From Squalus acanthias (Eukaryota): DNA of 64,000 nt. Each line of letters opens with the position of its first letter. The first letter of the stretch is position 1. The notes below the pieces were generated by a model that had not been told where the DNA came from, did no database searches, and was given only the letters and a program-made list of their open reading frames with translations. The stretch spans positions 3,410,001 through 3,474,000 of the forward strand of contig CM059432.1 of the NCBI GenBank assembly GCA_030390025.1, written 5' to 3'. This document shows, one piece after another, positions 23,465 through 63,499 of the stretch. The position numbers were made by a program, and so were the translations under genes.

Positions 23465-24294
23465 ATAAATGCCGGCCTTGCCAGCGACGCCCACATCCCA
23501 TAAAAAACGAATTTTAAATAAAGTGTCAGCTGTGGCTCAGTGGGGAGCACTCTCGCCTCTGAGTCAGAAAGTTGTGAGTTCATAGTCCCACTCCAGGGAC
23601 TTGAGCACATAATCTAGGCTGACACTCCCAGTGCAGTACCGAGGGAGCGCCGCACTGTCGGAGGTGGCGTCTTTCAGATAAGACGTTAAACCGAGGCCCC
23701 GTCTACTCTCTCAGGTGGACGTAAAAGATCCCGCAGCACTGTTTCGACGTTTTACTATGATAAAAGGCTCGATATAACTGCAAGATGTTGTTGTTGAAGC
23801 TGACCCCATATTTCCTGGTAATGTCACTGAGGCACTTGTCATAGACGAGAAATCGGTGGGACCCAGAATGTTGCCATGACAGAGGTGGCTGTGTAAATGG
23901 AGGATAAGCCATTGCATTATACAATCGTAGAATCCTAGAACAGTACAGCACAGAAGGAGGCCATTCGGCCCATCGAGTCTGCGCCGGCTCTTTCGAAGAG
24001 CAATCCAGTTAGTCCCACTCCCCCCCGCTCTTTCCCCATATCCCCGCAATTAATTCTCCTTTCGAGTTTTTATCCAATTCTCTTTTGAAGGCTACTATTG
24101 AATCTGTTTCCACCACCCTATCAGGCAGCGCATTCCAAATCCTAACCCACTCGTTGCGTAAAAAAGTTTTCCCTCATGTCGCCTCTGGTTCTTTTGCCGA
24201 TCACCTTAAATCTGTGCCCTCTGGTTGTCGACCCTTCAGCCATTGGAAACAGTTTCTCTTCATTTACTAAACCGGTCACGATTTTAAACAGCAA

Positions 24295-26947: not shown

Positions 26948-27281
26948 TCCAAATCTCCTCTTAGACTTCTCTGTTCCAAGGAGAACAACCCCAGCTTCTC
27001 AAATCTATCCACGTAACTGTAATCCCTCATCCCTAGTAAATCTCCTCTGCACCCTCTCCAAAGCCTTCACGTCTTTCCTAAAGTGCGGTGCCCAGAATTG
27101 GACACAATACTCCAGCTGGGGCCGAACCAGTGTTTTATATAAAGGTTTAGCATAATCCTGGCTTTTGTACTCGATGCCTCTGTTTATAAAGCCCAGGATC
27201 CCATGTGCTTTATTAACTGCTTTGTTAACCCGCCCTGCCACCTTCAGAGATTAGTGCACAAACACCCCCAGGTTTTTCTCT

Positions 27282-29095: not shown

Positions 29096-29343
29096 AGATA
29101 GATGGGACAGTGGATATGCTGATAGAGTGAGATGAAGAGGGGTTGGCGGAGGCTCGTGTGGATCATAAACGCCGGCACGGACTGGTTGGGCCGAATGGCC
29201 TGTTTCTATGCTGTAGATTCTGTACAATGTTGCTTGAAGCTGTCAAGCCAGATCTGGAGTGAACAACTCGGGTCATTGTTTAAGGAGTCTGTAATCCATG
29301 GATTTGAGGATGGGCCGTCGTACTGAACAAAATCGTGGCGCTG

Positions 29344-29555
29344 GGAGACCTCGAGGAGTTTGGTGGGAATGAGGGAGACCTTGAGGAGTTTGGTGGGAAT
29401 GAGGGAGACCTTGAGGAGTTTGGTGGGAATGAGGGAGACCTTGAGGAGTTTGGTGGGAATGAGGGAGACCTTGAGGAGTTTGGTGGGAATGAGGGAGACC
29501 TTGAGGAGTTTGGTGGGAATGAGGGAGACCTTGAGGAGTTTGGTGGGAATGAGGG
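29344..29555. repeat. Minisatellite, 30-bp unit gagggagaccttgaggagtttggtgggaat, about 7 copies
   Basis: Six identical units at 29371-29550 plus one imperfect unit before them. Confidence 0.98.
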
Positions 29556-29689
29556 CGTCAATACATAGAAACATAGAAACTAGGAGCAGGAGTAGGCCAT
29601 TCGGCCCGTCGAGCCTGCTCCACCATTCAATACGATCGTGGCTGATCATCCAAATCCAGTACCCTGTCCCTGCTTTAATCCCCACAGTA

Positions 29690-43772: not shown

Positions 43773-44515
43773 GGCCCAGAAATTGATCTCGCTCTGTTCC
43801 CGCGGGGGTAAGCCTTCCCCGCGATGTCTCACCTCGCTTATGCTTTTTCTGATCCAGCTCGCACGAACTTGATGTTCCAGACATCAGCTGTGCTGGGCTT
43901 GCGTATCCCAGCGGCGTAGTGAATTCGTGCGAGCTGTGGGATCACGTGACTCAGTTAGAGCCAATGGCAGCACACCATCTTCCATTCATAAGTCTCACAG
44001 CATGGCTGTGAGACTTATGAATCTTACACCCCCCCAAAATAACAGCTAAACCTCAATTAAATAAAAAAAAAAACCCATCACATTAATAAAATAAGTATAG
44101 TTAATTAAATTAACCATTTTAAATAAAAAATAAATTTTTGAAAAAATTTAAAATCTTTTAAAAAGTTATAAAAATAAACTTACCTGTCTTTAAAGTCTAT
44201 AAAAAAGATATACCTGTAAAAAAAAATTCAAAAAAATACTTAATTCACTACTTACCTTCTTAAAAGCGGGTCTTACTCCTCCTTTTTACATTTCCAAAAT
44301 CTTCCCTACTTACCTGCGCGACCAAAGCATGAAGTGCACAGCGTGCGCGCAGCCTGTAGCGCGCACGCGATGCACCCAGGCCCCGCCCCCTTTTCGGAAG
44401 AGCAATTGCCGGTTTTCAGCGCATGCGCAGGGCATGCAGAAAACCAGCAATTGGAGTGGGAATACGCGAGAGTATGCAGTGCGTACTCTCGCGTCCCGAG
44501 ATCAATTTTCGGCCC
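43773..44515. mobile_element. Non-autonomous Harbinger-like TIR element, family X copy A
   Basis: TIR GGCCCAGAAATTGATCTCG / CGAGATCAATTTTCGGCCC; collinear with 61990-62749. Confidence 0.75.
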
Positions 44516-44535
44516 TACAGATATGGCCACTATCA

Positions 44536-44618
44536 CGATAGCAAAATACTGCGGATGCTGGAAATCCGAAATAACAACAGAAAACGCTGGAAAAACTCAG
44601 CAGGCCAGGCAACATCCG
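44536..44618 (-). mobile_element. Penelope-like 3' end fragment
   Basis: Matches the 61447-61674 arms; flanked by the direct repeat tggccactatca. Confidence 0.7.
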
Positions 44619-44642
44619 TGGCCACTATCAGCTGTGAAAGGT

Positions 44643-45100
44643 GTCAGCCGTGGCTCAGTGGGTAGCACTCTCGCCTCTGAGTCAGAAGGTTGTGGGTTCA
44701 AGTCCCACTCCAGAGACTTGAGCACAAAAATCCAGGCTGACGCTCCCAGTGCAGTGCTGAGGGAGTGCTGCACTGTCGGAGGTGCCGTCTTTTGGACGAG
44801 ACGTTAAACCGAGGCCCCCGTCTGCCCCCTCAGGTGGACGTAAAAAATCCCACGGCCACTATTTTGAAGAAGAGCAGGGGAGTTATCCCCGGTGTCCTGG
44901 GGCCAATATTTATCCCTCAATCAACATCACTAAAAAACTGATTATCTGGTCATTATCACATTGCTGTTTGTGGGATCTTGCTGTGCGCAAATTGGCTGCC
45001 GCGTTTCCTACATTATAACAGTGACTACACTTCAAAAGGTTCTTCATTGGCTGTGAAGTGCTTTGCGACATCTCGAGGATGTGAAATGCTCGATATAAAG
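44643..45100 (+). mobile_element. DeuSINE (SacSINE1-like)
   Basis: Head, Deu core and tail as in the other copies. Confidence 0.85.
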
Positions 45101-45492
45101 GCTTTTTTGCTTTTTTAAAAGTGGTGAATAATAAGACCACTAGATTTAAAAGTAGAAAAACCTTGACATACTGTAATTGGTTCAGAGTGGGAGAAAAAAT
45201 TCACATTTATTAACACTGTCACCAGCGTGAATCCTGTCTCAACAACTGCAGTTTACGTTGGAGGAGAAATTGAGGTGTATAAAATTATGAGGGGCCGAGA
45301 TAGAGTGGATAGAAAGGACCTATTTCCCTTAGCAGAGAGGTCAATAACCAGGGGGCACAGATTTAAAGTAATTGGTAGAAGGATTAGAGAGGAGTTGAGG
45401 AGAACCTCTTTCACCCAGAGGGTGGTGGGGGTCTGGAACTCACTGCCTGAAAGGGTGGTAGAGGCAGAAACCCTCATCACATTTAAAAAGTA

Positions 45493-45837
45493 CAGGAAAC
45501 TCTTTATTAACCGGCACCGACGGGACCGGCGTGGTGCCGGTTAATCAAAAAGTCCGGATAATGGAGAGTTATATCTCCCAACGTTGACATGCGCCTGCAT
45601 TCGGAGCTCCGTCTCCCCGGCGACCGCCAGCTGACCATCTGTCGTGTCCGCTGCCTACCCGGGCTGCACATTCCCCTCCCAATCTACACGCTCCGATACA
45701 AGGCAAACGCCTCGGGGTTTTTTTTAAAGTTAATTTTAAACGAGAGATGAAGGAAAACCCCGGTTACCTACTCAAGAATTTTGCCGGTTAAGAGAGATTT
45801 CCGGATATTTGGGTGCCGGTTAATAAAGAGTTTCCTG
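45493..45837. mobile_element. Tc1/mariner-superfamily (pogo/Tigger-like) MITE inserted in a CR1 3' end (45265-45980)
   Basis: Perfect 26-bp TIR CAGGAAACTCTTTATTAACCGGCACC and TA TSD. The CR1 sequence aaaaagTActtggat is restored on removal. Confidence 0.92.
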
Positions 45838-46282
45838 TACTTGGATGTGCCCCTGAAGTGCCGTAACCTACAGGGCTACGGACCAAGAGCAGGAAAGTGG
45901 GATTAGGCTGGGATAGCTCTTTGTCGGCCGGCACGGACACAATGGGCCAAATGGCCTCCTTCTGTGCCGTAAACTTCTATGCTGCTGTGAAATGGTTCCA
46001 ATCAAAAAGTAAATGAATATGCTCTTAAGAGAAGGTTTCTGGATGACATTTAATGATGAATTAAATCCAGGATACAAAGCAATAGTAAAATAATTTATTG
46101 TGCAGGCAACAAAAGCAGTTCAGTCTCAGTTAACCTGGGAGATATAATCATATTTATGCTAATGGCAGCCCACTTTGAACACTAAAAGTACTTTTTCAAA
46201 TTTAAATGCCACTCCCTAAGAATGGCTTGCTGGCACATTACACTGAGATACTAATGCACTGGGTCATTGAACACCACAAACA

Positions 46283-47090
46283 ACTTGCATTTCTATAGCG
46301 CCTTTTACGACCACCGGATGTCCCAAAGCGCTTTACAGCCAATGAAGTACTTTTTGAAGTGCAGTCACTGATGTAATGTCGGAAACGCGGCAGCCAATTT
46401 GTGCACAGCAAGTTCCCACAAACAGCAGTGTGATAAATGACCAGATCATCTGTTTTTAGTGATGTTGATTGAGGGATAAATATTGGCCCCAGGACACCGG
46501 GGATAACTCCCCTGCTCGTCTTCGAAATAGCGCCATGGGATTTTTTATGTCCACCCGAGAGAGCAGACGGGGCTTTGGTTTAACGTCTCATCCGAAAGTC
46601 GGCACCTCCGACAGTGCAGCACTCCCTCAGCACTGCACTGGGAGTATCAGCCTGGATTTTTGTGCTCAAGTCTCTGGAGTGGGGCTTAAACCCACAACCT
46701 TCTGACTCGAGAACCCACTGAGCCATGGCTTTAATGTAGTAAAACGTCCCAAGACACTTTTCAGGGGCGATTATCAAACAAAATTTGACTCCAAGCCACA
46801 CAGGAGATATTTGGACAGGTTTGGTCAAAGAGGTCAGGTTTTAAGGAACGTCTTAAAGGAGGAGAGAGAGAGGCGGAGAGGTTTAGGGAGGGAATTCCAG
46901 AGCTTAGGGCCCAGGCAGCTGAAGGCACGGCCACCAATGGTGGAGCGATGGAAATCGGGGGATGCGCAAGAGGCCAGAATTAGAGGAGCGCAGAGATCTC
47001 GGAGGGTTGTAGGGCTGGAGGAGGTGACGGAGATAGGGAGGGGGTGAGACCATGGAGGGATTTGAAAACAAGGATGAGAATTTAAAAATT
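46283..47090 (-). mobile_element. DeuSINE (46283-46730) abutting an L2 3' fragment (46730-47090)
   Basis: Matches other copies of both families. Confidence 0.8.
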
Positions 47091-47239
47091 GAATACCTTG
47101 AACTTACATTTGCGTGCATGATCCCCCCAACACGGTTAATTTAAATTCTGCTGTGCTATCAGCGATGGGGGTGGGGGGTGCGGGGGAAGAAGCATGAATA
47201 CAGCAACTGATGTACAAAAGGGAAATTTAGCCCCCCACG

Positions 47240-47740
47240 CCCACTCTGACCTCGGCCTCTTACACTGTTTCAATGAAGCTCAGTGTAAGCTCGGGGGACA
47301 GCACCTCATCTTTCGATTAGGCACTTTACAACCTTCCGGACTCAACCTCGAGTTCAACATCATAACCACCGCTCCCATATCCTCAGACAGCAGCTGCTGG
47401 TAATGGTTGTGCTGTAGCCATTCACACCTCCTCTAGACCCATCTGTTGTTCCTTTACTTGTCCCATTACCACCCCCTTTCGCCTCACACCATCATCGCTT
47501 TTGTCATTTAATCTCTCCTGCCTTCCACCCCTATCACAGACCTTCCCTTTTGTTCTTTCCTCCCCTCCCTTGCTTAAAACCTGTTACGTCTCTAACTTCT
47601 TCCAGTGCTGACGAAGGGTCATTGACCTGAGACGTTAACTCTGTTCCTCTCTCCACAGAAGCTGCCTGACCTGCTGGGTGTTTCCAGCATTTTCTGTTTT
47701 TATTCCAGGTTTCCAGCAATCCGCAGCATCTTGCTTTTGT
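47240..47740 (+). mobile_element. Penelope-like element 3' end (GIY-YIG endonuclease C-terminus, pLTR with HHR at about 47604-47640)
   Basis: ORF 47194-47403 has QHLIFRLGTLQPSGLNLEF, resembling the Penelope GIY-YIG end. Downstream CTGACGA-aggGTC-att-GACct-GAgA-cgtt is an HHR with a GAAA>GAGA change. Confidence 0.8.
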
Positions 47741-47779
47741 TTGAGCCCAGCAGTATCGGTTTCAAATCTCTTTGTGTTC

Positions 47780-48225
47780 TGAAATAAAAACAGAGAATTC
47801 TATAACACTCAGCAGGTCAGGCAGCCTCCGTGGAGAGAAAGAAACAGAGTTAATGTTTCAGGTCGATGACCCTTCGTCAGAACTCTTTGTGTTCAGGTCT
47901 GTTGCAAGAGCACAAGGAACTTACAGATCAGGAAGAACATTCAACCGATCTTAACTCATTCATTCCAGAACAACTCAACACTTCAGCCCCTATTACGACA
48001 TCTATTTGTTCCTTAAATGATTCCAGAGTTGTTGCTTCTGTCACTCTACCCAGAGCTTCATTACAGGCACCGATCACTCTGTATGAAAAAGAACCTCCTG
48101 CTATTAGTCCTAAAGTTAGTAGTTTGTTAGGGTGCTGACGAAAGCTCATCGACCTGGAACGTTAACTCTCTTTCTCTCTCCACAGATGCTGCCTGATCCG
48201 CTGATTATTGCCAGCATTTTCTGTT
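47780..48225. mobile_element. Inverted pair of Penelope pLTR ends with HHR motifs (minus 47847-47885; degenerate plus 48134-48168) flanking an old CR1 fragment
   Basis: Arms match 61447-61674. Confidence 0.7.
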
Positions 48226-50148
48226 TATGTTATACTCTATATTATATATTATATTAGTAGTTTGAACCTTGACCTACTCCCACGGTTTAATCTTATAATC
48301 CTCTATAAGGTCACGTTTCAGAGCCCTCCATTCTCGGCCAAAAAGCCTAAGGTTCTCCAGTCTTTCCTTCTAACCCAGACCGCTGACACTGGGGATTAGT
48401 ATCGTGGCTTGTCTCTGTCCTGTCTCCAGCGCGTGAATTTCTCTCATATCAGATTATATTTTACACATTCGTCTTTGACAAGCTCCTGTCGGCAGGCCCA
48501 ATTACATAGGGTTACATAGGATGACACAATTACATAGGGTTACATAGGATGACATAGAATGTACAGCACAGGCCTTGGGCGCTTCTTTATCCGCCTTCAG
48601 CAATATGGTGGGCGCCGCACTTCCTGCGCGTAATAAGCACGCGCGCGCCCCGCCCGCCCGCCATATTGGATGCTTAGGCGCCCATTTTGTGCCTGAAAAA
48701 GCAAGCGCGCCGCCATCGGCTGTCTAGGTCTATGCGCTCTTTAGTGATCGAAAATTTCGTATCACAAGCAGAGTTGCCAATTGGCTATGGATGGTGGAGC
48801 ATCCAGTGCGTTCCGCCTACGGTTACTCGTCAATAAGATGATTGCTGGCAGCAGAGTTCCTTTAAAGATTCATTCTTATAATCTCATCACTATTGTACCA
48901 TACGCTGCTTATTATCAGTACCAGGCATTCGGCGTTGCAATCATGTTCTGCTTATATCTATTAGAGGTAATTTTATCATAAATGTAAGAAGTAATGAAGT
49001 ATTTTTCTTTGTGAAGTAATTTTCTATATTACAGTAGCTCAAACAGCCAATGAAGTAACTAAAATTAGTTTCTAATGTACCATACAGGCGTGAAAACGTT
49101 ACGGTATAATTTCATTCATCAAATTATATTCTTAACAACAAAACCCACCCTGCCCAGCGTCCGAAATATAACCAGCAATTGTTTTGCGTACAAGAGGATT
49201 TGATTACAAGAGCGACTCCAGAGAGCTCATGGGAAAAAAGATCCAGAAACCCGAGAGAAGACACATATAAAAGTGAAGTATTCTGTTCCTCGCTATCAGC
49301 TAGAGTACTGCGAACAGTCCTGGTCACCACTGGAGAAGAACTTGGAGCGGGAGGGGGAGGATCCAGTTGTCGTGGTCCACGTAGGAACCAACGACATAGG
49401 TAGAACTAGGAATGAGTTTCTGCTGAGGGAGTTTGAGGAGCTAGGATCGAAATTAAAAAGCAGAACCTCAAAGGTAATAATCTCTGGATTGTTACCTGAG
49501 CCACGCGCAAATTGGCATCGGTACAAACAGATTAGAGGTTTAAATGCGTGACTCAAAGAGTGGTGTGGGAGTTCATGGGACACTGGCACCAGTACTGGGG
49601 GAAAGAGGGAGATGTTCCATTGGGATGGGCTCCACTTAAACCGGGCTGGGACCAGTGTCCTGGCGAACCGAATATCTAGGGCAGTAGATACGGATTTAAA
49701 CTAATGAAGGGGGGGGGGGGTGGGAGGATTCAGGAAAGAGTAAATTTAAAAGCAGCAAGAGAAATGTCAAGGCTCTAGAGCAGAGTAGAGTTTTGGGTAA
49801 AAATAAGCAGAGTGGGTCAGGAAGGGACAGAGAGAGTAACAAAGGTAATAGGGCATCAGTGACTAAGGTGACATCAGGGAAAAATAGAAATAAGTCAAAG
49901 CTAAAGGCACTATATCTGAATGTGCGAAGCATTTGCAACAAAATAGATGAATTAATAGCGCAGATAGAAATTAATAGGTTTGATCTAATAGCCATAACGG
50001 AGACGTGGTTGCAAAGTGGCCAAGGTTGGGAACTAAATATTCCAGGATACTTAACTTTTAGAAGAGATAGGCAAAATGGAAAAGGAGGAGGGGTAGTCCT
50101 GATAATAAAGGATGGGATAGAGACAGTAGTGAGAAAGGATCTTAGCTC

Positions 50149-53050
50149 TGTAGGGGGTGGTGGTTTGTGTCAGCTTCATCTCTGACTTCTGAGCGGTTCG
50201 AATCGCTCCCACTCCCTTGGTTCTAGACCTTGGACTTATTTGGGGGTTAAAAACATAGAAACATAGAAGATAGGAGCAGGAGTAGGCCATTCGGCCCCTC
50301 GAGCCTGCTCCGCCATTCGATGAGATCATGGCTGATCATCCAAACTCAGTACCCTGTCCCTGCCTTTTCCCCATATCCCTTGATCCCTTTAGCTTTAAGA
50401 AATATATCTAACTCATTCTTGAATATATTTAATGACTTGGCCTCAACTACCTTCTGTGGTAGAGAATTCCACAGGTTCACCACTCTCTGGGTGAAGAAAT
50501 TCTTCCTAATTTCTGTCCTAAATGGCTTACCCGTTATTCTTAGATTATGACCCTTGGTTCTGGACTCTCCGACCATCGGGAACATTCTTCCTGCATCTAG
50601 TTTGTCCAGACCTGTCAGAATTTTATATGTTTTGATGAGATCCCCTCTCATTCTTCTATACTCCAGCGAGTATAAGCCCAATCGACCCAATCTCTCCTCA
50701 TATGTCATTCCTGCCATCCCAGGTATCAGCCTTGTGAATCTTCGCTGAACTCCTTCCATGGCAAGAACATCCTTCCTCAGATAAGGCGACCAAAACTGCA
50801 CACAGTACTCAAGGTGTGGTCTCACCAAGGCCCTGTACAACTGCAGCAGGACATCCCTGTTCCTATACTCAAACCCTTTCGCTATGAAGGCCAACATACC
50901 ATTTGCCTTCTTCACCGCCTGCTGCACCTGCATGCTTACTTTCAGCGACTGGTGCACAAGGACACCCAGGTCTCGTTGCACTTCCCCTTCTCCCAATCTA
51001 TTGCCATTCAGATAATAGTCTGCCTTTCTGTTTTTGACACCAAAGTGGATAACCTCGCATTTATCCACGTTATATTGCATCTGCCACGCTTCTGCCCACT
51101 CACCCAACCTGTCCAAATCATCCTGGAGTTTCTCGGTATCCTCCTCGCAGCACACACTCCCACCCAGCTTTGTGTCATCTGCAAACTTGGAGATATTACA
51201 TTTAGTTCCCTTATCTAGATCATTAATGTATATTGTGAATAGCTGGGGTCCAAGGATCGAACCCTGCGGTACCCCACTAGTCACAGCTTGCCACTCGGAA
51301 AAAGACCCATTAATTCCTACTCTCTGCTTTCTGTCCGCCAACCAGTTCTCTATTCAAGTCAATACCTTGCCCCCAATCCCATGTGCCTTAACTTTACATG
51401 CTAATCTCTTATGCGGGACCTTATCGAAAGCCTTTTGAAAGTCCAAATACACCACATCTACTGGTTCTCCCTTATCTATTTTCCCAGTTACATCCTCAAA
51501 AAATTCCAGTAGATTAGTCAAGCACGATGTACCTTTTGTAAATCCATGTTGACTTTGTCCGATCCTGTCACTGTTTTTCAAGTGCTCAGCTATTACATCC
51601 TTTATAATGGACTCTAGCATTTTCCCCACTACCGATGTCAGGCTTACCGGTCTGTAATTCCCTGCTGTAATAAAAAGTGCAGCAGACAACTGGTTTTGAT
51701 GCAAGAACTTTGATCTTTATTCAAGAAAGTAAAACACAACACAAACACTCTTAACACTCTAAAAGTGGGGAACACTTCGGTACAAACGAGAGAAATAACA
51801 TTAGAAGAATACTACACCCTCCCAATCCCACTTCACTAGCTAGGTTGGACTCCAGAGGACCAGGGATGATACTCACCAGAATCCTTGACAGTTAGGTTAG
51901 TTCGCGGTTTTGGGGTTCACTCTATATGTCGGTTGGTGTCCGCCGTACCCCGTACGTGGTAGAGGACTTCAACTGCGTATCTGGTCAGTCTTCGCGAGTC
52001 CGCTGATGTGGTAGGGTGCGTATTGGATTTATCAGGTGAGTACCCACTTTTCTTTGGTTTAGAAGTAGGGTTGAGAGTTTTTTTAAGGGAAAATCTTACC
52101 CAGGGGTAAGTCAGGAGTAGATTGTAGAGTGGAAACTTTGCGGTTCTTCGGGTTTTCTTCGAGTTGGTTTTCTTTGGTCACGGTGGCCCAAATATTGATA
52201 CTTGGTGTTTGGTTGGTTGTTTCGTGAGGGCCTTGTTGCCGCGAGGTGTCTGGTGGTCACTGAGGCGGTCGTTCTGGTTTCTTCTCATGTCAGCCTGCTT
52301 TGTTGGATGGTCTGGCCTTCGAGCTGTCGACCTCCTGGCTGGACACAGAACGCTGAACGGTGGTGTTGCAGAACTGTGTTGTGGAGAATGCCTCCGTCGA
52401 TGTCTTCTTGTTCTTCCTTCCTCTTCTTTTTCAAGTTGAGAACGGGCCTTCAATTATACCCATTGAAGCTCCCTTATCTGCGCGCCAAATCAGGTCCCGG
52501 TCTTTGTTAGTTTTGGCGGGCTCGTTAACGATAACTGGTTTGTTAAGGTGTGAAGTGGTTCCGGGATGGCCCTCATCCTGTCGATTTGCCACTTAATCGG
52601 AGTTTGATTGTTCTTATGTTTTGGGTTTTCTTGGCTGGGCCTATGATTTCTATGGAGTAGGCCGAAGTAATCTGTTTTATGCATGTCTTAATGGGCTCTG
52701 TAAATTGGGGTGGAGACTGTTTTTCCTCGGGTTTATTGTTAGGATGCTAATGTCTGATAGGGGCCGATTTACACTCCCAGCGAGATCATACGGTTCCCCA
52801 GACAGTTCCCATTAGCTCCAATACCCAAACTCTCTTTACAGAGGTTGATCCCACCTTCCTTCACAGCTTTTTCTCCCTCACAAGCCCAGACATGTTTTAA
52901 AAGTACCAAATCTTGGTTTTTGCTCAAAATGTCCTTCGATTAGGCCCAATGCACTTCACTACCCTGTAATAGCTAGAAAAGAGTCCAAAGTCTTTTACCT
53001 TAGGGTTTTTCTTAGGGTTAGGGGGACCTGTGAATTTTGAGAATCTTACA
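50149..53050 (-). mobile_element. Solo LTR (about 1.5 kb net) of an LTR retroelement/ERV, split by a CR1
   Basis: TGTAGG...CTTACA termini and 4-bp TSD GCTC (50145-50148, 53051-53054). The host CR1 frame RKDLSS|ENQEVESVWVEL is restored on removal. AATAAA on the minus strand at about 51716-51721. Confidence 0.85.
50252..51665 (-). mobile_element. CR1 LINE, 5'-truncated, nested in the solo LTR
   Basis: 331-aa open RT C-terminal ORF 50346-51341 (FADDTK) and ORF 51354-51704. Confidence 0.92.
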
Positions 53051-53957
53051 GCTCTGAAAATCAAGAAGTAGAATCAGTTTGGGTGGAGCTAAGAAACAGC
53101 AAGAGGCAGAAAACATTGGTGGGAGTTATTTATAGGCCCTCAAACAGTAGTTGTAATGTAGGGCCGAGTATAAATCAGGAAATTAGAGGCGCATATAACA
53201 AGGGTAATACAGTGATCATGGGGGACTTTAATCTACATATAGACTGGGCTAACCAAATTTGCAGTAATAGTGTGGAGGACCAGTTCAGTATGTTGAGAAA
53301 CTAACTAAGGAACAGGCGATTTCAGATCCAGTATTGTGCAATGAGAAAGGGTTAATTAATAACCTTGTAGTAAAGGGGCCTTTAGGGAAGAGTGACCATC
53401 GTATGATAGAATTTTATATTGAGTTTGAAAGTGATTTAGTTAAGTCCGAAACTAGGGTCTTAAACCTAAACAAAGCAAATTACGTAGGTATGAGGGGCGA
53501 GTTGGCTACGGTAGATTGGGAAACTACATTAAAAGGTATGACAGTAGACAAGCAATGGCTAGCATTTAAAGAATTGATACATAATTTATAACAAATATAC
53601 ATTCCTTTAAGGCACAAAAATCCCACAGGAAAAGTGGTCCAACCGTGGCTAACAAGAGAAGTTAAAGATAGTATTAGATCAAAGGAAGAGGCTTATAATG
53701 TTGCCAAAAAGAGTAGTAAGCCTGAGGATTGAGAGGATTTTAGAATTCAGCAAAGGAGGACCAAGAAATTGATAAAGAAAGGGAAAATAGAATATGAGAG
53801 TAGACTAGTGAGAGACATAAAAACAGACTGTAAAAGCTTCTATAGGCATGTAAAAAGGAAAAGATTAGCAAAAGTAAATGTGGGTCCCTTACAGACTGAG
53901 ACAGGAGAAATAATAGTGGGGAATAAGGAAATGGCAGTGAAATTAAACAAATACTTT

Positions 53958-54835
53958 GGCCGCGATCTTACCTTTCAGTGTGAGCTGGGAGCGGGACTGC
54001 TGCCTTCAGGGTTCCGATCCCGCTCCCAACAACGTCCAACACAAAGGCGCTATTTTGCGTCAATTGGCCTTGTTAACCCCGCCCTGCGGGCTTGTCGGAC
54101 AATTAAGAGAAAGCTGGTGTCAGATGACGTCAGTTGATGACGCGTAATCTGCCGATTTTCTTAAAGGGGCCACGCACATTTTTTTTTGACAGCTGATTTT
54201 TCAGTGTTTGACAGCATTGAGGTGCTGCAAACACTGACAATCACTGTACAAAGGTGAGCCCTTGCACCCAAACCCTCCAGTGACTCTCTCTTTAGGATAA
54301 AACAGATGGCAGCTGCAGGTGAGGTTACAGAGGCAATCTGTCACTGGTGAGAGAGGTTCTCCCAATGAGCTGGGACTACACAAACACTTCAAACCTTGTT
54401 ACCTACAGAAAAAGTCTAAATACATTAAAAAAGATTTCCCCAACATTTTCTTACCTCTGAAACTCACCAGTGTACCAGTGGATCCTCCACACCACTTCTG
54501 CAGCTGTCATCAATGCAGAAACACGACAGTAGACCCACAACACGCCACACTTACCCGGCATGGTGTCCGGACGTCGGGAAGCCCGCAGTCCTCCTGTCAA
54601 AATTGAAAAAAGCCTCTTAACTGCCTGTTAACTACCTGTTAACAAGCAGTTAAGTGCCTATAATCCTCTTCCCACCGCTAGGTGTCGGGTCCCTGCGCAA
54701 ATCGGGGACCCGACACTTGGGAAGATTGTATGGAGGCGGGTTGACAGCGGGTTTGGGACCCGCTGTCAATCTTTGCAATTTTGCCGGATGTCCCGCCTCC
54801 AAACCCGCCCCCTGAGTGCCGGCAAAATTCCCCCC
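53958..54835. mobile_element. Harbinger-like TIR element, family Y copy D, inserted in CR1 ORF2
   Basis: The CR1 reads aaatacttt|...|attgtgtctgtc (3-bp TSD ttt/att). Homologous, in inverted orientation, to 58871-59709. Confidence 0.75.
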
Positions 54836-56389
54836 ATTGTGTCTGTCTTCACGGAACAAGGCGCAAAAAAACCTCCCGGAAATAGTGGAGAACCAAGGGT
54901 CTAGCGAGAATGAGGAATTGAAAGAAATTAGTACTGGTAAAAAAATAGCACTGGATAAATTAATGGGACGGAATGCCGATAAATCCCCTGGACCTGAAGG
55001 CCTACATCCTAAGCTTTTGAAAGAGGTGGCTATAGAGATAGTGGATGCGTTGGTTGTCATTTTCCAAAATTCCATAGATTCTGGAACGGTTCCTGCGGAT
55101 TGGAAGGTAGCAAATGTAACCCCACTATTTAAGAAAGGAGGGAGAGAGAAAATGGGGAACTACAGACAAATTAGCCTGACATCAATAGTCGGGAAAATGC
55201 TGGAGTCTATTATTAAGGACGTGGTAACAGGGCACTTAGAAAATAATAATAGGATTGGGGAGAGTCAACACAGATTTATGAAAGGGAAATCATGTTTGAC
55301 AAATCTGTTAAAGGTTTTTGAGGTTGTAACTAGCAGAATAGATAAGGGGGAACCAGTGGATGTGGTCTATTTAGATTTTCAGAAGGCATTCGATAAGGTG
55401 CCACACAAGAGGTTATTAAACAAAATTAGGGCTCATGGGATTGGGGGTAATATACTAGCATGGACTGAGGATTGGTTAATGGACAGAAAACAGAGAGTAG
55501 GAATAAACAGGGTCATTTTTGGGTTGGCAGGCTGTAACTAGTGGGGTACCACAAGGATCAGTGCTTGGGCCTCAGCTATTCACAATCTACATCAATGATT
55601 TGGATGAGGGGACCAAATGTAATATATCCAAGTTTGCTGATGATACAAAGCTGGGTGGAAATGTAAGTTATGAGGAGGATGCAAGGAGGCTTCAAGGGGA
55701 TATGGACAGGCTAAGTGAGTGGGCAAGAACATGGCAAATGGAATATAATGTGGAAAAATGTGAAGTTATCCACTTTGGTAGGAAAAATAGAAAAGCAGAG
55801 TATTTTTTAAATGGTGAGAGATTGGGAAATGTTGGTGTTCAGAGGGACCTGGGTGTCCTTGTACACAAATCACTAAGCTAACATGCAGGTACAGCAAGCA
55901 ATTAGGAAAGCAAATGGATTATTACAATAGGATTTGAATATAAGAGTAAAGACGTCTTACTGCAATTATATAGGGCCCTGGTGAGACCACACCTGGAGTA
56001 TTGTGTACAGTTTTGGTCTCCTTATCTAAGGAAGCATATACTTGCCATAGAGGGAGTGCAACGAAGATTCACCAGACTGGTTCCTGGGATGGGGGGATTG
56101 TCCTATGAGAAGAGATTGAGTAGACTAGGCCTATATTCTCTGGAATTTAGAAGAATGAGAGGTGATCTCATTGAAACATACAAAATTCTTACAGGGCTTG
56201 ACAGGGTAGATGCAGGGAGGATGTTTCCCCTGGCTGGAGAGTCTAGAACCAGGGGTCACAGTCTCAGAATAAGGGGTCAGCCATTTAGGACTGAAATGAG
56301 GAGAAATTTCTTCACTAAGAGGGTGGTGAATCTTTGGAATTCTCTACCCCAGAGGACTGTGGAGGCTCAGTCGTTGAGTATATTGAGTC

Positions 56390-56762
56390 AGTGTGTACCA
56401 TCTACAAGATGCACTGCATCAACTCGCCAAGGCTTCTTCGGCAGCCCCTCCCAAATCTGCGACCTCTTTCACCTAGAAGAACAAGGGCAGCAGGCGCATG
56501 GGAACACCACCACCTCCAAGTTCCCCTCCAAGTCACACACCATCCTGACATAGAAATATATCGGCCGTTCCTTCATCGTCGCTGGGTCAAAATCCTGGAA
56601 CTCCCTCCCTAACAGCACTGTGGGAGCACCTTCACCACACGGACTGCAGCAGTTCAAGAAGGTGACTCACCACCACCTTCTCAAGGGCAATTAGAGATGG
56701 GCAATAAATGCTGGCCTTGCCAGCGACGCCCACATCACATAAACGAATAAAACATTTTTTTT
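56390..56762 (+). mobile_element. Family-B LINE 3' end nested in the CR1 3' region
   Basis: Matches 60165-60527. Confidence 0.85.
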
Positions 56763-56939
56763 TTAAGTATATTCAAGACAGAGATCGATAGATTTTTGAA
56801 TATTCAGGAAATCAAGGGATATGGGGATAGTGCAGGAAAGTGGAGGTGAGGTAGAAGATCAGCCATGATCTTATTGAATGGCGGAGCAGGCTCGAGGGGC
56901 TGAATGGCCGACTCCTGCTCCTATTTCTTATGTTCTTTT

Positions 56940-57805
56940 TATAGGAAGGATGTGATCGCAGTAGAGAGGGTACAGAGGAGAGGTACGAGGATGTTGCCAG
57001 GACTGGAGAATTTTAGCTATGAGGAAAGATTGGATAGGCTGGAACAGAGGAGGCTGAAGGGAGACTTAATTGAGGTGTATAAAATTATGAAGGGCCTAGA
57101 CAGAGTAGATAGGAAGGACCTATTTCCCTTAGAGACGTCAATAACCAGGGAGCATAGATTTAAAATAATTGGTAGAACGATTAGAGGGGAGTTGAGGAGA
57201 ACTTTTTTCACCCAGAGGGTGGTGGGGATCTGGAACTCACTGCTGGAAAGGTAGGAACATAGGAACAGGAGGAGGCCATTCAGCCCCTCGAGCCCGTTCC
57301 AACATTCAATTAGATCATGGCTGATCTGTATCTTAACTCCATCTACCCACCTTGGTTCCGTAACCCTTAATACCCTTGCCTAACAAAAATCTATCAATCT
57401 CAGTTTAATTTGAAGAAAGACTTGCATTTATATAGCACCTTTCACAACATCCCAAAGTGCTTGACAGCCAATGAAGTAATTTTGGAGCATAGTCACTGTT
57501 GTAATGTAGGAAACACAGCAGCCAATTTGCACACAGCAAGCTCCCACAAACAGCAATGTGATAATGATGAGATAATCTGTTTACTAGTCATGCTGATTGA
57601 GGGATAAATATTGACCAGGACACCTACTCTTCTTCAAAATAATGCTGTGGGATTTTTTTCTTCCACATGAGGGGGCAGAAGAGGCCTCAGTTTAACGTCT
57701 CATCCGAAAGACGGCACCTCCGACAGTGCAGCACTCCCTCAGCACTGCACTGGGAGTGTCAGCCTAGATTTTTTGTGCTCAAGTCTCTGGAGTGGGACTT
57801 GAACC
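56940..57805. mobile_element. CR1 fragments (+ 56940-57255; - 57255-57405) and DeuSINE (- 57412-57805)
   Basis: ORF 56904-57254 CR1 motifs; Deu core. Confidence 0.75.
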
Positions 57806-58870
57806 TTCTAATGTAGGATTAGGATCAGTTAAAAGTTTTGGTTTTAGCTTGCCTATTTAAGTGACCTTCACTGTCAGAAGTATTCTTTCGTCTTCCTGCT
57901 AATTTTGTCAAACTGCGTCTGAAAAGAAGAAATAACATTCTCTCCAGTTAATTGTTGGTCACCTAATTGGCAAAAATTAGCCAACTGACAATTTTTAGTT
58001 GGACTTCCATTTTATTACTTCTTTTTATCAGTGGAAACTGTCAGCCTGTGAGAGAGCTCCAATTAGCAGGGTTCGAGCGGACTAAAGCACAGCTACCTAT
58101 TATTTTAATTTAATAACACTTGTTAATAATACTCATCTTATCCTTTTTTAAAAAGACATTTAATTTAAACACACGATAGCAAATCTTACAAGGGATATTT
58201 AAGACTCTTCATTTTTTTTAAGCAATTTTTTTCAAGTGGTGGGAAAAGTGCAATTATATTGTGACAAGTTTACATGTCAGAATTCCCATTAGAATTGCAG
58301 ACATTAGCAATTAAAATGGAAGGAATCGTTAATACAGAAAGTGTGCCAAGACATAAGATTTTTAATACATCATAGACTGATACAGCACTGAAGGACATTC
58401 GGCCCATCGTGCCTGTGCCGGCTCTTTGAAAGAGCTCTCCAATTAGACCCACTCCCTCTGCTCTGTCCCTGTAGCCCTGCTCCTGCCACTTTGAAACACA
58501 GCATAACATAAGAACATAAGAAATAGGAGCAGGAGTAGGCCATTCGGCCCTTCGAGCCTGCTCCGCCATTCAATGAGATCATGGCTGATCTTCTGCCTCA
58601 ACTCCATTCACCGGCCATATCGCCATATCCCTCGATGCCCTTACTTGATAACACTTTTGAAAGTCACTATTGAATTTGCTTCCACCACCCTTTCAGGCAG
58701 TGCATATCTCATATATATTTTTTTCTTTCTCTCCTTTTACTGCCACTTAGTTCCTTCCTGAGGCATGGTTGGGATATGCTCACAAGTAGCCATTCTTCAT
58801 AAAAACAGAAAATGCTGGAAATACTCAGCCGGTCGGGCAGCATCTGTGGAGAGAGAGAAACAGAGTTAAC

Positions 58871-59709
58871 GGGCAGAATTTTCACTGACCCGTGGAGGCG
58901 GGTTTGGAGGCGTGTGGGGTGGGAAAATAGCAGATTCCCGAACCCATCCCGCCCCCAACCCGCCTCCTATGCCAGTTTCCCAGGAGGTGAGTACCCGACC
59001 TGTGCTGGGACCCGCCTCCCCGAGGCGGGAAGGGGATTTAGTGCCAATAAACTGCCTGTTAACAGGTAGTTAACAGGCAGTTTTTTGCCTAATCCCTATT
59101 TTTAGCCCTGAAGTGTGGGCTTCCCGACAGGTCCGAACCACGCCGATTTAGCGAGGCGGACCGTTGGTCTGGAAGGCTTGGAGGGGTCGAGATGTCCGGT
59201 GTGCAGGTGAGTGATGGGTGCATGAGTGCAGAGGTAAGTGTGTTTGGTGTGTGTAAAGTGTTTTAAGAACTTTTACTTACCTTAACTTTGTCCTCCAGGC
59301 TTCCTCCCTTCAGTTCTCGGGAGTCCCTCAGCTCACCAGCACAGAAAGCAGAATGGCCGCGGAGCTGTCAAAAGCTGCAGTCTCTGCTTTCTGTGCTGGA
59401 TTGATTTCTAACTGAGTCTAAGTACAGGGACTCAAGTTAGAAATCATATTGTCAGTGTTTGACAGCTTCACAGAGCTGTCAAACGCTGAAATTTCATCTG
59501 TCAAAAGCTCTTGACAGATGAAATTTCAATGGCTGACGTTACCTGTATCCAAGGGACCCTTGATTGGCCTGCTGAGCCCGCTGGGCGGGCTTAACAAGGT
59601 CAATCAAGGGAAAATACAGTGGGTTGGCCACAAGTTGATGGAGGCGGGACTACAACCCAAAAAGTGGGAGTCCCGCCTCCATCACGTCCCCATTGACAAA
59701 ATCCAGCCC
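58871..59709. mobile_element. Harbinger-like TIR element, family Y copy C
   Basis: TIR GGGCAGAATTTT/AAAATCCAGCCC, exact 3-bp TSD AAC, several internal palindromes. Confidence 0.85.
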
Positions 59710-59771
59710 AACGTTTCAGGTCGGTGACCTTTCGTCAGAACTGGAAGAGGTTAGAGTATTAACAGTTTATA

Positions 59772-60527
59772 ATGACTATCTCCAACAAGCGAGAGTCTAA
59801 CCACCGGCCCTTGACATTCAACGGCATTACCATCGCTGAATCCCCCACCATCAACATCCTGGGGGGGTCACCATTGACCAGAAATTTAACTGGACCAGCC
59901 ACATAAATACTATGGCTACAAGAGCAGATCAGAGGCTAGGTATTCTGTGGCAAGTGTCTCACCTCCTGACTCCCCAAAGCCTTTCCACCACCTACAAGGC
60001 ACAAGTAAGGAGTGTGATGGGATACTCTCCACTTGCCTGGATGAGTGCAGCTCCAACAACACTCAAGAAGCTCGACATCATCCAGGACAAAGTAGCCCAC
60101 TTGATTGGCACCCAATCCACCACCTTAAACATTCACTCCCTCCACCACCGGTGTACCGTGGCTACAATGTGTACCATCTACAAGATGCACTGCAGCAACT
60201 CGCCAAGGCTTCTTCGGCAGCACCTCCCAAACCCGCGACCTCTACCACCTAGAAGGACAAGGGCAGCAGGCGCACGGGAACACCACCACCTCCAAGTTCC
60301 CCTCCAAGTCACACACCATCCTGACTTGGAAGTATATCGCCGATCCTTCATCGTCGCTGGGTCAAAATCCTGGAACTCCCTCCCTAACAGCACTGAGGGA
60401 GTACCTTCACCACACGGACTGCAGCGGTTCAAGAAGGCAGCTCACCACCACCTTCTCAAGGGCAATTAGGGATGGGCAATAAATGCTGGCCTTGCCAGCG
60501 ACGCCCAGATCCCATGAACAAATAAAA
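59772..60527 (+). mobile_element. CR1/L2-group LINE family B, 3' 750 bp
   Basis: ORF 59912-60469: YKAQVRSVMGYSPLAWMSAAPTTLKKLDIIQDK...SWNSLP; poly(A) signal and tail. Confidence 0.85.
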
Positions 60528-61218
60528 TTTTAAGCAATTGCAGAGCTAAGGAAAAGGGTGGGGGAGGTGCGGGCGTGGGGAGGAGATGGGGTGAGGGAGG
60601 GAATAACAAAAGGCAAGTTCTGACGTAAAGTCACCAACCAGAAACGTTGGGCTGAATTTTCCGGGGAGGTAGATGGCAGGATCAGTGGCAGGTCGGGTGG
60701 GAAAGTTGGTTTTTTTGACAGCGGGTTAAGAGCCTTTTCCCCCCTACTTTTTAAATTTCCCTGCATGGCCATGGGATTCACACAGCTCGGGAACCCCGTC
60801 TGTCAACCTGAGGCGTGAGTTCAGTGGCCATTGCTCCAGCTGATTACTTGACAGCATGGAAAACAAACCAAAATAAAAACATGTTGATCACATCAGCTAA
60901 CAGATTGATGGAGATTCTGTTCTACTTGAAAAGCTACTGGTAAATGTTAATTTTTCACTGTCCATTCTCGGCTGTTGTCTTCCAACAGGACAGTCATTGC
61001 AGTGAATTGATCTGCGCTATAAAAAGATGACACATACCATTTAAATAAACATTTGTGTTGTTTCTGGTCAGGTTTTTGTCACAGTATACTGTGATTGTCC
61101 AGTTACACATAAATCAAGTCATCAACCGTAACAATTTCGTTCTCATCACTCATTCCACTGGTTCAATTTGCTCTCAGTCCCTGAATATAACTAATTTAAT
61201 TTTTCAGTCTGAGACTTT

Positions 61219-61376
61219 AGGGTGAATTTCTGCAGAGGTTCTCTCACTTGTCCATTGTTAACTTCAACGGGAGAGCTGCATAAATCCCAGAAACACATTG
61301 CAAGCACCATTTACACTGTTTGTCAGGGATTCCGCAGCTCTTCTGCTGAACTTGCGTAAGGTCGTAAATCCACCCC
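61219..61376. mobile_element. 158-bp palindromic MITE
   Basis: TIR AGGGTGAATTT/AAATCCACCCC, TTT on both flanks, internal inverted repeat gagagctgc..aaatccc/gggatt..gcagctctt. Confidence 0.55.
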
Positions 61377-61446
61377 TTTACAATTGCATTTAAAATCTGC
61401 TTAATTTTATGTATTACCTATACACACACATCTTATATTTGTACCA

Positions 61447-61674
61447 ACAACAGAAAGCGCTGGAAAAACTCAGCAGGCCAGGCAACATCCGTGGAGAGAG
61501 AAACAGAGTTAACGTTTCAGGTCGAAGACCCTTCGTCAGAACAGTTCTGACGAAGGGTCTTCATCCTGAAACGCTAACTCTGTTTTGCTCTCCACGGATA
61601 TTGCCTGGCCTGCTGAGTTTTTCCAGCGCTTTTTGTTGTTATTTCAGTTTTCCAGCATCCGCAGTATTTTGCTA
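61447..61674. mobile_element. Palindromic Penelope pLTR remnant with two back-to-back HHRs
   Basis: Inverted arms of about 95 bp centred at 61542; perfect 14-bp flanking direct repeat ttatatttgtacca. Confidence 0.85.
61506..61541 (-). ncRNA. Minimal type I hammerhead ribozyme motif, intact core (family 1)
   Basis: guu-CUGACGA-a-GGGUC-uuc-GACCU-GAAA-C-GUU-aac. Stem I guu/aac, stem II, palindromic stem III ACGU, NUH = GUU. Confidence 0.75.
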
Positions 61675-61989
61675 TTATATTTGTACCAGTTACTGATACA
61701 AAAGTCTACAGATTTGTGACTAAAGCACCAATAACTTCCCAATTAATGTACTTTTTAAATTATGTTCTTGATCGTGTTTGTAGATGGAGTCATATTACTG
61801 AATGATAATTTTATTTAAAGATTTGTTTGTCACTCATATATAACTTTTATTATGTTATTGTACAGTAAAGATTCAACACCCACTATGTTAGATTAAACTT
61901 AAAATGCAATGTGGCCATGGTCCCTTTAAAGATCCCGACTTAATACTTAAAACCCTTAAAACTCCTGCTCCTATTTCTTATGTTCTTAT

Positions 61990-62749
61990 GGCCCAGAAAT
62001 TCGGGTTGGAGGATTCCCGCGGGCGCAAGCCCCCAACCTGCACTTACATAGCACGCCTGCCGTTGTGATGTGGACCTGCGTGGGATTCGGATCCTGGGCC
62101 TCCTCCAGCTGCCGGCGCGCAGTGCTCGCGTATCCCAGTGGCGAAGCTAGTTCGCAGCGTCCCCTGGGATCACGTGGGCCATGGGGAGCCAATCGGAGCA
62201 GGGAATCTCCATTCATAGATTTGACAGGAAGACCTGTCAAATCTATGAATAGAGATCGGCCCCAAAACCCAAGTAAAACTTCAAATACATTAAAAAAAAA
62301 AATCACATTTTTAAAATAACTATAAATTACACAAATTAACTATTTTAAACAAAAATTTAAATTTTTGAAAAAATTAATTAAAGTTTTTAACGGGGCTAAA
62401 AATAAACTTACCTTTCTTTAAAGTATTTAAAAATGATAAACCTGTGGAAAAAATGTTTCAATTTTACTTAATTCACCTCTTACCTTGTTAAAGGCAGGCC
62501 TTGCGCCTGCTTTTTCCCCGCGCAGCTGCTAGGGACTTACCCACACGGAGAAACCTGTAAAACAAGCGAAAGTTCCAGGTCTACGCGCTGCCTCTCCGGC
62601 GCACGTGTTTGACCCGCGAACCCCTTCCTTCAAGGGAACGGAAGTTCCGGTTTCCAGCGCATGCGCAGTGCATGCGCGAAACCGGCACTTTCGTTGGCCT
62701 TACGGGTGAGTACACAGCGCGTACTCACCCGTGGGGACCCGAATTTCTG
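61990..62749. mobile_element. Harbinger-like TIR element, family X copy B
   Basis: TIR CAGAAATTCGGGT/ACCCGAATTTCTG; TAT on both flanks, within a CR1 (tatgttct)n tail. Confidence 0.75.
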
Positions 62750-63499
62750 TATGTTCTTATGAATGACATCACCAGACCCGCTCCACCTCATTGGGCTGGG
62801 TAACGCGCTGGGCGGGCTTAATAGGCCCCATTAAGGTAAGTTCATTTTGTACAGCGTGATGGAGCCAGCAGCGGGGTCGCGTCCCGCCATAGACACCGGC
62901 CACACCAGACCCGCCCAGGTAAGGAAAATTCCTGCCGTTAGCTCTGTTTCTCTCTCCGCGGACGCTGCCCGACCTGCCGAGCGTCTCCAGCATTTTCTGT
63001 TTCTGATTTCGGATTTCCAGCCTCGGCAGTATTTTGCTTTCATGTGTGAGCCTAGACTGAGGGCTTTTAACCATTGGATGATATCACAACCGAGGCCAAA
63101 CAGGGTTACGGACAAAAGAAGCGGGACTAAAGCACGACGGCTCTTGCAGAGAGCCGGCACGGGCACGACGGGCCGAATGGCCTCCTTCTGTGCTGTAAGT
63201 TTCTGTCATTCTACGATAACCCGATGTCACACATGCACGCTTTCCCCCCCACTACCTAAACCTCAATTTGCAGTTCTGCTAAACCCCCCCCACCCCCAAA
63301 CCTCCTTATGTTGGCCTTTTCGCTAAAATAAACATGTGTATAACCATTTTGAGATGAGGCCTGAACTTATTTCAGGTGGCCACCAGGGGCACCCTAACAA
63401 AAAAAAAAGGACCCTGACTAATTCAGCAGTGGGCCCGGCTAAATTAATTAGATATCTAATGCAAATGAAGCAGCATTGTGTAATTAGCTTTGCTAGAGT

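Follow-up and report, generated by a model that had tools for sequence, protein, structure and literature searches.

Covariation of internal hairpins between copies of a non-autonomous PHIS/Harbinger-type element in Squalus acanthias

Structure of copies A and B

The stretch of Squalus acanthias DNA analysed here (the window) comprises 64,000 nucleotides (nt) of contig CM059432.1 of assembly GCA_030390025.1, from position 3,410,001 to 3,474,000 of the forward strand, and all coordinates below are those of the window. It contains two copies, A and B, of a MITE (miniature inverted-repeat transposable element) whose internal hairpins co-vary between the copies. An earlier note drawn up from the letters of this stretch had described A and B as collinear yet diverged, and alignment over their full length agreed with this, 506 of 733 columns being identical (69%). 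No third copy of the family was found within the window with blastn. The parts of the two copies, including their terminal inverted repeats (TIRs), are as follows; family-majority letters are those of the public contigs placed on B.

43773..44515, plus strand: copy A, non-autonomous PHIS/Harbinger-type MITE, 743 bp, collinear with B
61990..62749, plus strand: copy B, 760 bp, right TIR short of its final 4 nt
43773..43791, plus strand: left TIR of A, pairing with 44497-44515; inner part GATCTCG; 16/19 Watson-Crick pairs, one G-T and two mismatches
61990..62007, plus strand: left TIR of B, pairing with 62736-62749; inner part CGGGT; 13/14 Watson-Crick pairs
43801..43823: left-end 7-bp hairpin of A; counterpart in B (62019-62041) with 4/6 pairs, 5 with the majority letter
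43855..43936: long-range stem of A, perfect 13 bp with a spacer of 56 nt, enclosing two small hairpins
43943..43965 in A and 62171-62193 in B, plus strand: conserved motif block with CACGTG and CCAAT, 72% identical
43984..44022: hairpin 1 in A, perfect 18 bp, loop of 3 nt
62205..62256: hairpin 1 in B, perfect 18 bp (62211-62250, loop of 4 nt) with a 6-pair outward extension, 5/6 paired, that is missing from A
44061..44314 in A and 62289-62541 in B, minus strand: AT-rich core, 80% identical
44341..44368: hairpin 4 in A, perfect 10 bp, 15/17 when extended
62579..62606: hairpin 4 in B, decayed to 4/10 pairs, 7/10 with family-majority letters
44403..44453: hairpin 3 in A, surrounding GCGCATGCGC, 16/18 pairs
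62637..62695: hairpin 3 in B, outer helix of 16/18 pairs and an inner 8-bp stem
44464..44494: hairpin 2 in A, perfect 11 bp, or 13/14 if one T-G is counted where a CpG has decayed
62702..62732: hairpin 2 in B, perfect 12 bp

The order of parts along the element was a left multi-stem region, the CACGTG/CCAAT block, hairpin 1, the AT-rich core, hairpin 4, hairpin 3 around GCGCATGCGC and finally hairpin 2. We take CACGTG to be E-box-like and GCGCATGCGC to be NRF1-like. The CpG observed/expected ratio of the element was approximately 1.05 (A: 1.06) compared to 0.52 for the window. The minus strand of the AT-rich core showed four putative splice-donor-like motifs per copy (A 44184, 44214, 44256 and 44314; B 62412, 62442, 62484 and 62541), while AATAAA occurred on the plus strand only. 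These four ACTTACC-type motifs were evenly spaced in both copies (44160-44325; 62390-62550) and lay downstream of the CpG-rich GCGCATGCGC end, a layout like that of a promoter followed by U1 sites; on the plus strand they presumably resemble the 5' end of the U1 small nuclear RNA. The ends of hairpin 1 were considered as splice acceptors and rejected because the branch-point spacing was too short. In addition, hairpins 2 and 3 (44419-44490; 62657-62725) had a common central GCAGTGC-like loop motif. In the family majority the second half-site of hairpin 3 reads GTGCATGCAC, which is GCGCATGCGC after symmetric CpG decay. CpG decay may account for this pair of half-sites. No open reading frame of at least 40 amino acids (aa) was common to A and B, and the longest frame, of 187 aa over the right half of A, had no Pfam match.

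Covariation between A and B

The covariation of the A and B hairpins is real. Hairpins 1 and 2 occupied the same alignment positions in the two copies and their flanks were conserved, which bore out the positional homology presumed in the earlier note. Hairpin 1 was a perfect 18-bp stem in both copies as had been reported, but the five compensated pairs claimed for it were reduced to four clean ones among 17 unambiguous pairs (13 invariant); the fifth and innermost depended on the register of the 5- and 6-nt loops and vanished in a MAFFT alignment. Hairpin 2 did show the two compensated pairs ascribed to it, with a stem of 11 bp in A and 12 bp in B, and the outer helix of the third, imperfect stem was confirmed at 16/18 pairs in both copies. 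Pooling hairpins 1 and 2, 6 of 28 pairs were altered on both sides and none on one side only. Three of these six were transversion pairs, which could not arise via G-U. When the partners in hairpin 1 were slid out of register, double changes fell to 0. A column-shuffle control for hairpin 1 gave 39 of 500 shuffles as high, in a setting where two rows cannot reach significance. CpG decay was rejected as the origin of the hairpin-1 covariation, as no CpG site was present among the hairpin-1 differences.

The TIRs of the element were 18-19 bp long and started with GGCCCAGAAATT, and their inner parts were unlike between the copies and matched inside each copy. The inner-TIR covariation that had been pointed out was found as four double changes between A and B, which is what TIR subfamilies are expected to show.

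To lessen picking bias, every stem of at least 8 bp in one copy was read in the other copy. The stems of A read in B comprised 52 pairs, of which 29 were the same, 9 compensated, 6 wobble and 8 broken; those of B read in A comprised 46 pairs (34 same, 7 compensated, 1 wobble, 3 broken and 1 gap). Compensated pairs made up 9/23 of the changed pairs for A in B (p 1.4e-5) and 7/11 for B in A (p 2.2e-6) compared to 7% predicted under independent substitution; the two reading directions overlap in hairpins 1 and 2, and the p values are not independent. Both copies were rich in such stems, with 52 bp in A and 46 bp in B compared to block-shuffle means of 2.0 (max 9 of 60 shuffles) and 4.6 (max 34 of 60), and the median across 82 tiles of the window was 8 bp. 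Conservation of the stems was incomplete. Hairpin 4 was perfect in A and decayed in B, and the 13-bp long-range stem of A read in B showed 3 pairs the same, 3 compensated, 4 wobble and 3 broken.

A second pair of multi-hairpin copies

A second multi-hairpin MITE family in the window served as a replicate and was represented by two copies.

58871..59709, plus strand: copy C, with AAC duplicated and an empty site at 61506
53975..54835, minus strand: copy D, relative of C, one end not found and limits approximate

The identity of C and D was 60-68% depending on the aligner. The two copies had 126 and 91 bp in stems of at least 8 bp and were more hairpin-rich than A and B. Compensated pairs made up 10/58 (p 0.023) and 10/32 (p 2e-4) of the changed pairs, and the C/D pair thus repeats the A/B covariation more weakly. 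Several perfect stems were private to one copy. A perfect 18-bp stem of C (59487-59528) corresponded in D to 10/18 pairs with a longer spacer, where the segment was paired with downstream sequence instead. Copy C also showed three donor-like motifs, ACTTACCT and an acceptor-like site at 58987-59300.

Family abundance and relatives

Contigs from public sequencing runs of DNA type placed on B numbered 28,548, 57,435 and 43,880 in three organisms, with heterogeneous flanks; these figures count contigs rather than copies of the element. From a fourth run, of raw reads and read to about 6%, 2 reads fell on B. Among the 24 runs listed, 20 contained part of B; no RNA run was listed as containing it, which speaks neither for nor against transcription. 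A pattern scan for further copies of the A/B type gave 0 in viral contigs, 0 in metagenome contigs and 0 in bacterial genome contigs; a looser pattern gave 22 loci in metagenome contigs, none of which matched A or B (blastn, E 0.01).

The family-majority letters improved the pairing of B, from 4/10 to 7/10 pairs in hairpin 4 and from 4/6 to 5/6 in the left hairpin, and the majority letter at 62007 restored the 14th TIR pair. Resting copies therefore decay, and the covariation is a property of the subfamily founders. Forty of the 194 family differences from B were shown, and none of these 40 affected the 60 sites that form the arms of hairpins 1 and 2 (p 0.034, a weak value, since the selection rule for the rows shown is unspecified and palindromic contigs may map to either arm). 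Loose ends in two runs showed a third version of the left arm of hairpin 1, between A and B in sequence, with the left arm only visible.

The MITE family is apparently undescribed. The literature gave no account of the A/B family or of co-varying internal hairpins in shark or vertebrate Harbinger MITEs, in a search that lay outside Repbase, Dfam, subscription journals and supplements, so that repeat libraries may contain the family.

Ends and classification

The right end of B was incomplete, the last four nt of its right TIR being gone. Loose ends of the family contigs formed two clusters, one at 61988-61989 and one past 62749, and beyond the latter point the majority letters ran GGCC or GCCC; B has therefore lost four terminal bases, and the family is dispersed. 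Copy B sits within a CR1 long interspersed element (LINE), in its 8-bp repeat tail, with TAT on either side (61987-61989 and 62750-62752), while the flanks of A (CAT and TAC) gave no clean 3-bp duplication. The majority flank letters of the family best fitted GG...CC termini with an A-N-T triplet, at an agreement of only 0.37-0.46. Taken alone, B could be read as a TTA duplication given a longer end deletion. A T-GG terminus with an ACA duplication suited A and was rejected, being contradicted by C and by the loose ends of the family.

These features point to a MITE of the PHIS superfamily, whose members have short TIRs starting with G/A and a 3-bp (or 2-bp) duplication and whose autonomous elements have two frames, for a DDE transposase and for a Myb/SANT or other partner. 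The element was short (743 and 760 bp) with TIRs, had no coding capacity, and was abundant and dispersed. GG termini were present, and a 3-bp duplication was clear in C, consistent in B and absent in A. The TWA target duplication of PIF/Harbinger was found in none of the copies, B having TAT, C having AAC (empty site at 61506) and A having CAT/TAC. The ANT rule of the Pangu group fitted the majority letters of the loose ends, within the low agreement given above, but not the copies in the window. No transposase or autonomous partner was found in the window among 35 of the 45 long frames, which were scanned and gave 6 domain matches, all of them LINE; the 10 omitted frames spanned a stretch of N, fell within a tandem repeat or shared sequence with a LINE frame that had been scanned.

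The Helentron/HINE and IS200/IS605 HUH elements have subterminal inverted repeats with a hairpin outside them and make no target duplication. A stem-loop near the 3' end is a feature that they have in common with the A/B element. Identity with either group was rejected, as the A/B element has its inverted repeats at the termini and hairpin 2 on the inner side of them, and copies B and C show a 3-bp duplication.

The closest known systems were compared with the A/B element. It is like non-autonomous PHIS elements or Tourist-like MITEs, namely the PIF/Harbinger and Pangu groups and mPing (PMC4482050, PMC9921582, PMC10288884), in its short TIRs starting with GG, lack of coding capacity, apparent 3-bp duplication, high copy number and internal sequence that may matter for mobility. 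Pangu elements have an ANT duplication and TIRs of 11-40 bp starting with AG or GG, and the available text of PMC4482050 gives no vertebrate host for them. Compared to PIF/Harbinger proper, the A/B element lacks TWA (flanks A-N-T; TAT, AAC) and is 750 bp long with at least five local hairpins and with promoter- and splice-donor-like motifs. Fold-back MITEs, namely Angel of teleosts (PMC5172404) and the Goblin/hairpin MITEs (PMC3814204), are alike as palindromic non-coding elements with an A-rich centre; however, Angel and Goblin are single whole-element palindromes or have long TIRs, whereas in the A/B element the TIRs are short and there are several internal stems independent of one another. 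Finally, hairpins made by template switching (PMC8794818, PMC5453318) are alike in their perfect stems, several compensated pairs, extension and new stems. They differ in that the A/B case concerns several palindromes of one mobile element over about 30% divergence, which calls for copying at a high rate while the lineage is active, and shows no loop inversion.

Origin of the covariation

The co-varying arms are probably best explained by copying of one arm onto the other in active master lineages, as template switching during gap repair with moderate constraint in addition. As such, they are a clean case of a known process, which adds an example and no new mechanism. A and B would belong to two old subfamilies of a PHIS/Harbinger-type MITE that has no genes of its own and is moved by cut-and-paste with transposase presumably supplied in trans. 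In the active masters, one arm of a palindrome would be copied onto the other by a short template switch in which the nascent strand folds back. The likeliest occasion would be when the sister chromatid serves to repair the break at the donor site, a step at which the element would gain copies and the new strand would be single-stranded. A point change in one arm would then be erased or written into the partner arm, giving perfect stems with double changes, and the same copying would now and then lengthen a stem or make a new one. In a resting genomic copy the stems would decay as ordinary DNA. Moderate constraint on hairpin positions, CpG-rich motifs and the AT core probably also acts and would choose which palindromes persist.

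Template switches create and maintain hairpins (PMC8794818, PMC5453318) and may maintain DNA structures without selection (PMC5453318). Stem extension is listed among their footprints, and loop inversion is rare there too (PMC8794818). Homology-dependent repair renders mPing transposition replicative (PMC10288884), template switching in gap repair has been invoked for hairpin MITEs (PMC3814204), and either nascent-strand fold-back or such switching has been proposed for Angel (the Izsvak model, PMC5172404) and for hairpin MITEs (PMC3814204). We infer the placing of the copying in donor-site gap repair from these reports and PMC13148408.

Of the two explanations offered in the earlier note, template-switch homogenisation of arms in founders was supported by the one-sided extension in B, the lineage-specific stems of C and D, the lack of wobble intermediates in hairpins 1 and 2 and the decay of hairpin 4 in B, while selection on RNA structure was left unsupported. 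Selection on DNA structure may act too: arms and motifs are less diverged than the unpaired ends, and the model comparison given below does not discriminate at a neutral distance of 1.5-2 or more. Hairpin 1 of B has 24 pairs when extended, of which 23 are Watson-Crick (62205-62256), and the stem of A is not extended. The left flank of this stem is common to A and B with one gap, while the right flank differs at 6/6 sites, and hairpin 1 of B therefore extends outward. Pairing of at least 5/6 in a random hexamer has a p of about 0.005 (hand arithmetic, p=0.25 per site).

A toy model of arm evolution with 16 states was applied to four A/B data sets and compared copying, stepwise selection and both together. 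At a neutral distance of 0.45 substitutions/site the model favoured copying over selection alone 300- to 30000-fold, and at 0.6 it did so 14- to 900-fold in three of the four data sets and 7-fold in the fourth. At 1.0, selection with copying was favoured over selection alone 2- to 316-fold.

Several results weigh against copying. In the same model at 1.0, copying alone did not outperform selection alone (ratio at most 1), and at 2.0 adding copying to selection gained only 1- to 15-fold, so that the model would favour copying only below a neutral distance of about 1 substitution/site. Divergence was uneven along the element: the AT core was 80% identical (about 0.25 substitutions/site), the left end and the hairpin-4 region were 57-59% identical (about 0.8-1) and shuffles were 54% identical. 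If 0.8-1 is the neutral rate, copying alone would fit worse than selection alone. Because divergence is uneven, the argument that double changes at a neutral rate exclude selection is weakened; the unevenness itself reflects either constraint or mosaic exchange between subfamilies. The arms differed at 18-24% of sites, whereas the figure was 39-45% for the left end, for the hairpin-4 region and for the stretch that follows hairpin 1. The model would also require copying at 3-100x the site mutation rate, a rate undocumented for any animal MITE in the literature examined, and comparison by eye showed inversion in none of the loops inspected (those of hairpins 1 and 2 of A and B and two loops of C and D). 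With two copies, the direction of the B extension and of the stem found only in C is not polarisable, and loss is possible. Finally, hairpins 1 and 2 were chosen because they are perfect in both copies, the majority letter at 62676 breaks a hairpin-3 pair that is present in B, and the majority of changed pairs in C and D were broken.

Some of these results favour selection alone on DNA structure, in which hairpins formed as single-stranded folds or cruciforms would be required for mobilisation or copy gain, masters with broken stems would die out and a second-site mutation would restore pairs. The hairpins hold homologous positions while their unpaired neighbours are near saturation, no family difference among those shown falls in the arm sites, and at a neutral distance of about 1.5-3 such selection fits as well as any model. 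Internal sequence is also reported to influence mPing mobility (PMC9921582), although hairpins are nowhere mentioned in the available text of that paper. At a neutral distance of 0.6 or less the fit was poor, and by itself this selection leaves the block-like extension in B and the stems private to C or D unexplained. We consider selection alone rather unlikely.

A reading that joins the two, in which these shark MITEs would be multi-hairpin, self-correcting DNA devices, is also unlikely. Folding during donor-site repair would then both correct the palindromes at a very high rate and promote regeneration of the copy, making structure a selected cis-element of amplification.

It is improbable that the element works as a small transcription unit and that functional stems form in its RNA, such as hairpins like those of precursor microRNAs or hairpins that mask introns. 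The conserved CACGTG, CCAAT and GCGCATGCGC, the CpG ratio of about 1.05, the four minus-strand donor-like motifs in both copies and AATAAA on the plus strand only would suit this, as would the strong predicted folding (z -7 to -9.5 compared to 50-nt block shuffles). However, both strands folded far below the block shuffles alike, and mismatches within the stems of A to D (G-T 5, A-C 5, other 10) showed no excess of G-T on either strand, although the numbers are small. The G-U intermediate was absent from hairpins 1 and 2 except at one decayed CpG, and the window had 0 Rfam matches at gathering score.

Binding of the palindromes by a dimeric protein such as a Myb-like transposase partner, with half-sites changed jointly as subfamilies adapted to different partners and with no folding or copying, suits the inner TIR, where the two ends of the element have to fit a single partner (four double changes), the core T[GC]ACAG...CTGT[CG]A that recurs in hairpin 1 and in C/D stems, and the binding of Harbinger TIR sequences by a Myb-like protein (PMC9179366), but it is improbable, since perfect pairing of 17-24 bp, spacers of 3 to 56 nt and lineage-private stems exceed the needs of a binding site.

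Covariation is usually taken as proof of functional RNA structure. Here a DNA transposon shows covariation without an RNA-strand signal, which calls for caution in structure screens of repeat-rich genomes. An element with many subfamilies across several shark-like species is a natural data set for the rate at which palindrome arms are rewritten by template switching, and the same family is suited to testing whether internal structure explains the strong amplification of some MITEs. If the self-correcting device is true, secondary structure would be a selected cis-element behind amplification, a role known so far as a proposal (Angel model).

Other features of the window

The window was repeat-dense, and the scanned long frames gave LINE fragments with five reverse-transcriptase matches and one endonuclease domain match. 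CR1-type tails and short interspersed elements (SINEs) that we take to be tRNA-like were also present. A 355-bp element at 45488-45842, presumably Tc1/mariner-like, had perfect 31-bp TIRs, TA flanks and an internal 13-bp hairpin repeating part of the TIR, and sits in the 3' end of a CR1 element. Four other fragments of GG-ended MITEs, which contained local palindromes, were found at 24291-24470, 26455-26950, 60649-60870 and 62760-62890, and the one at 60649 was inserted at the same SINE triplet (GTT/AAC) as copy C. A perfect 19-bp palindrome lay at 61524-61562 in a SINE/MITE-like repeat between C and B. Finally, a tandem array with a 30-bp unit in about seven near-identical copies adjoined a CR1 tail at 29313-29585.

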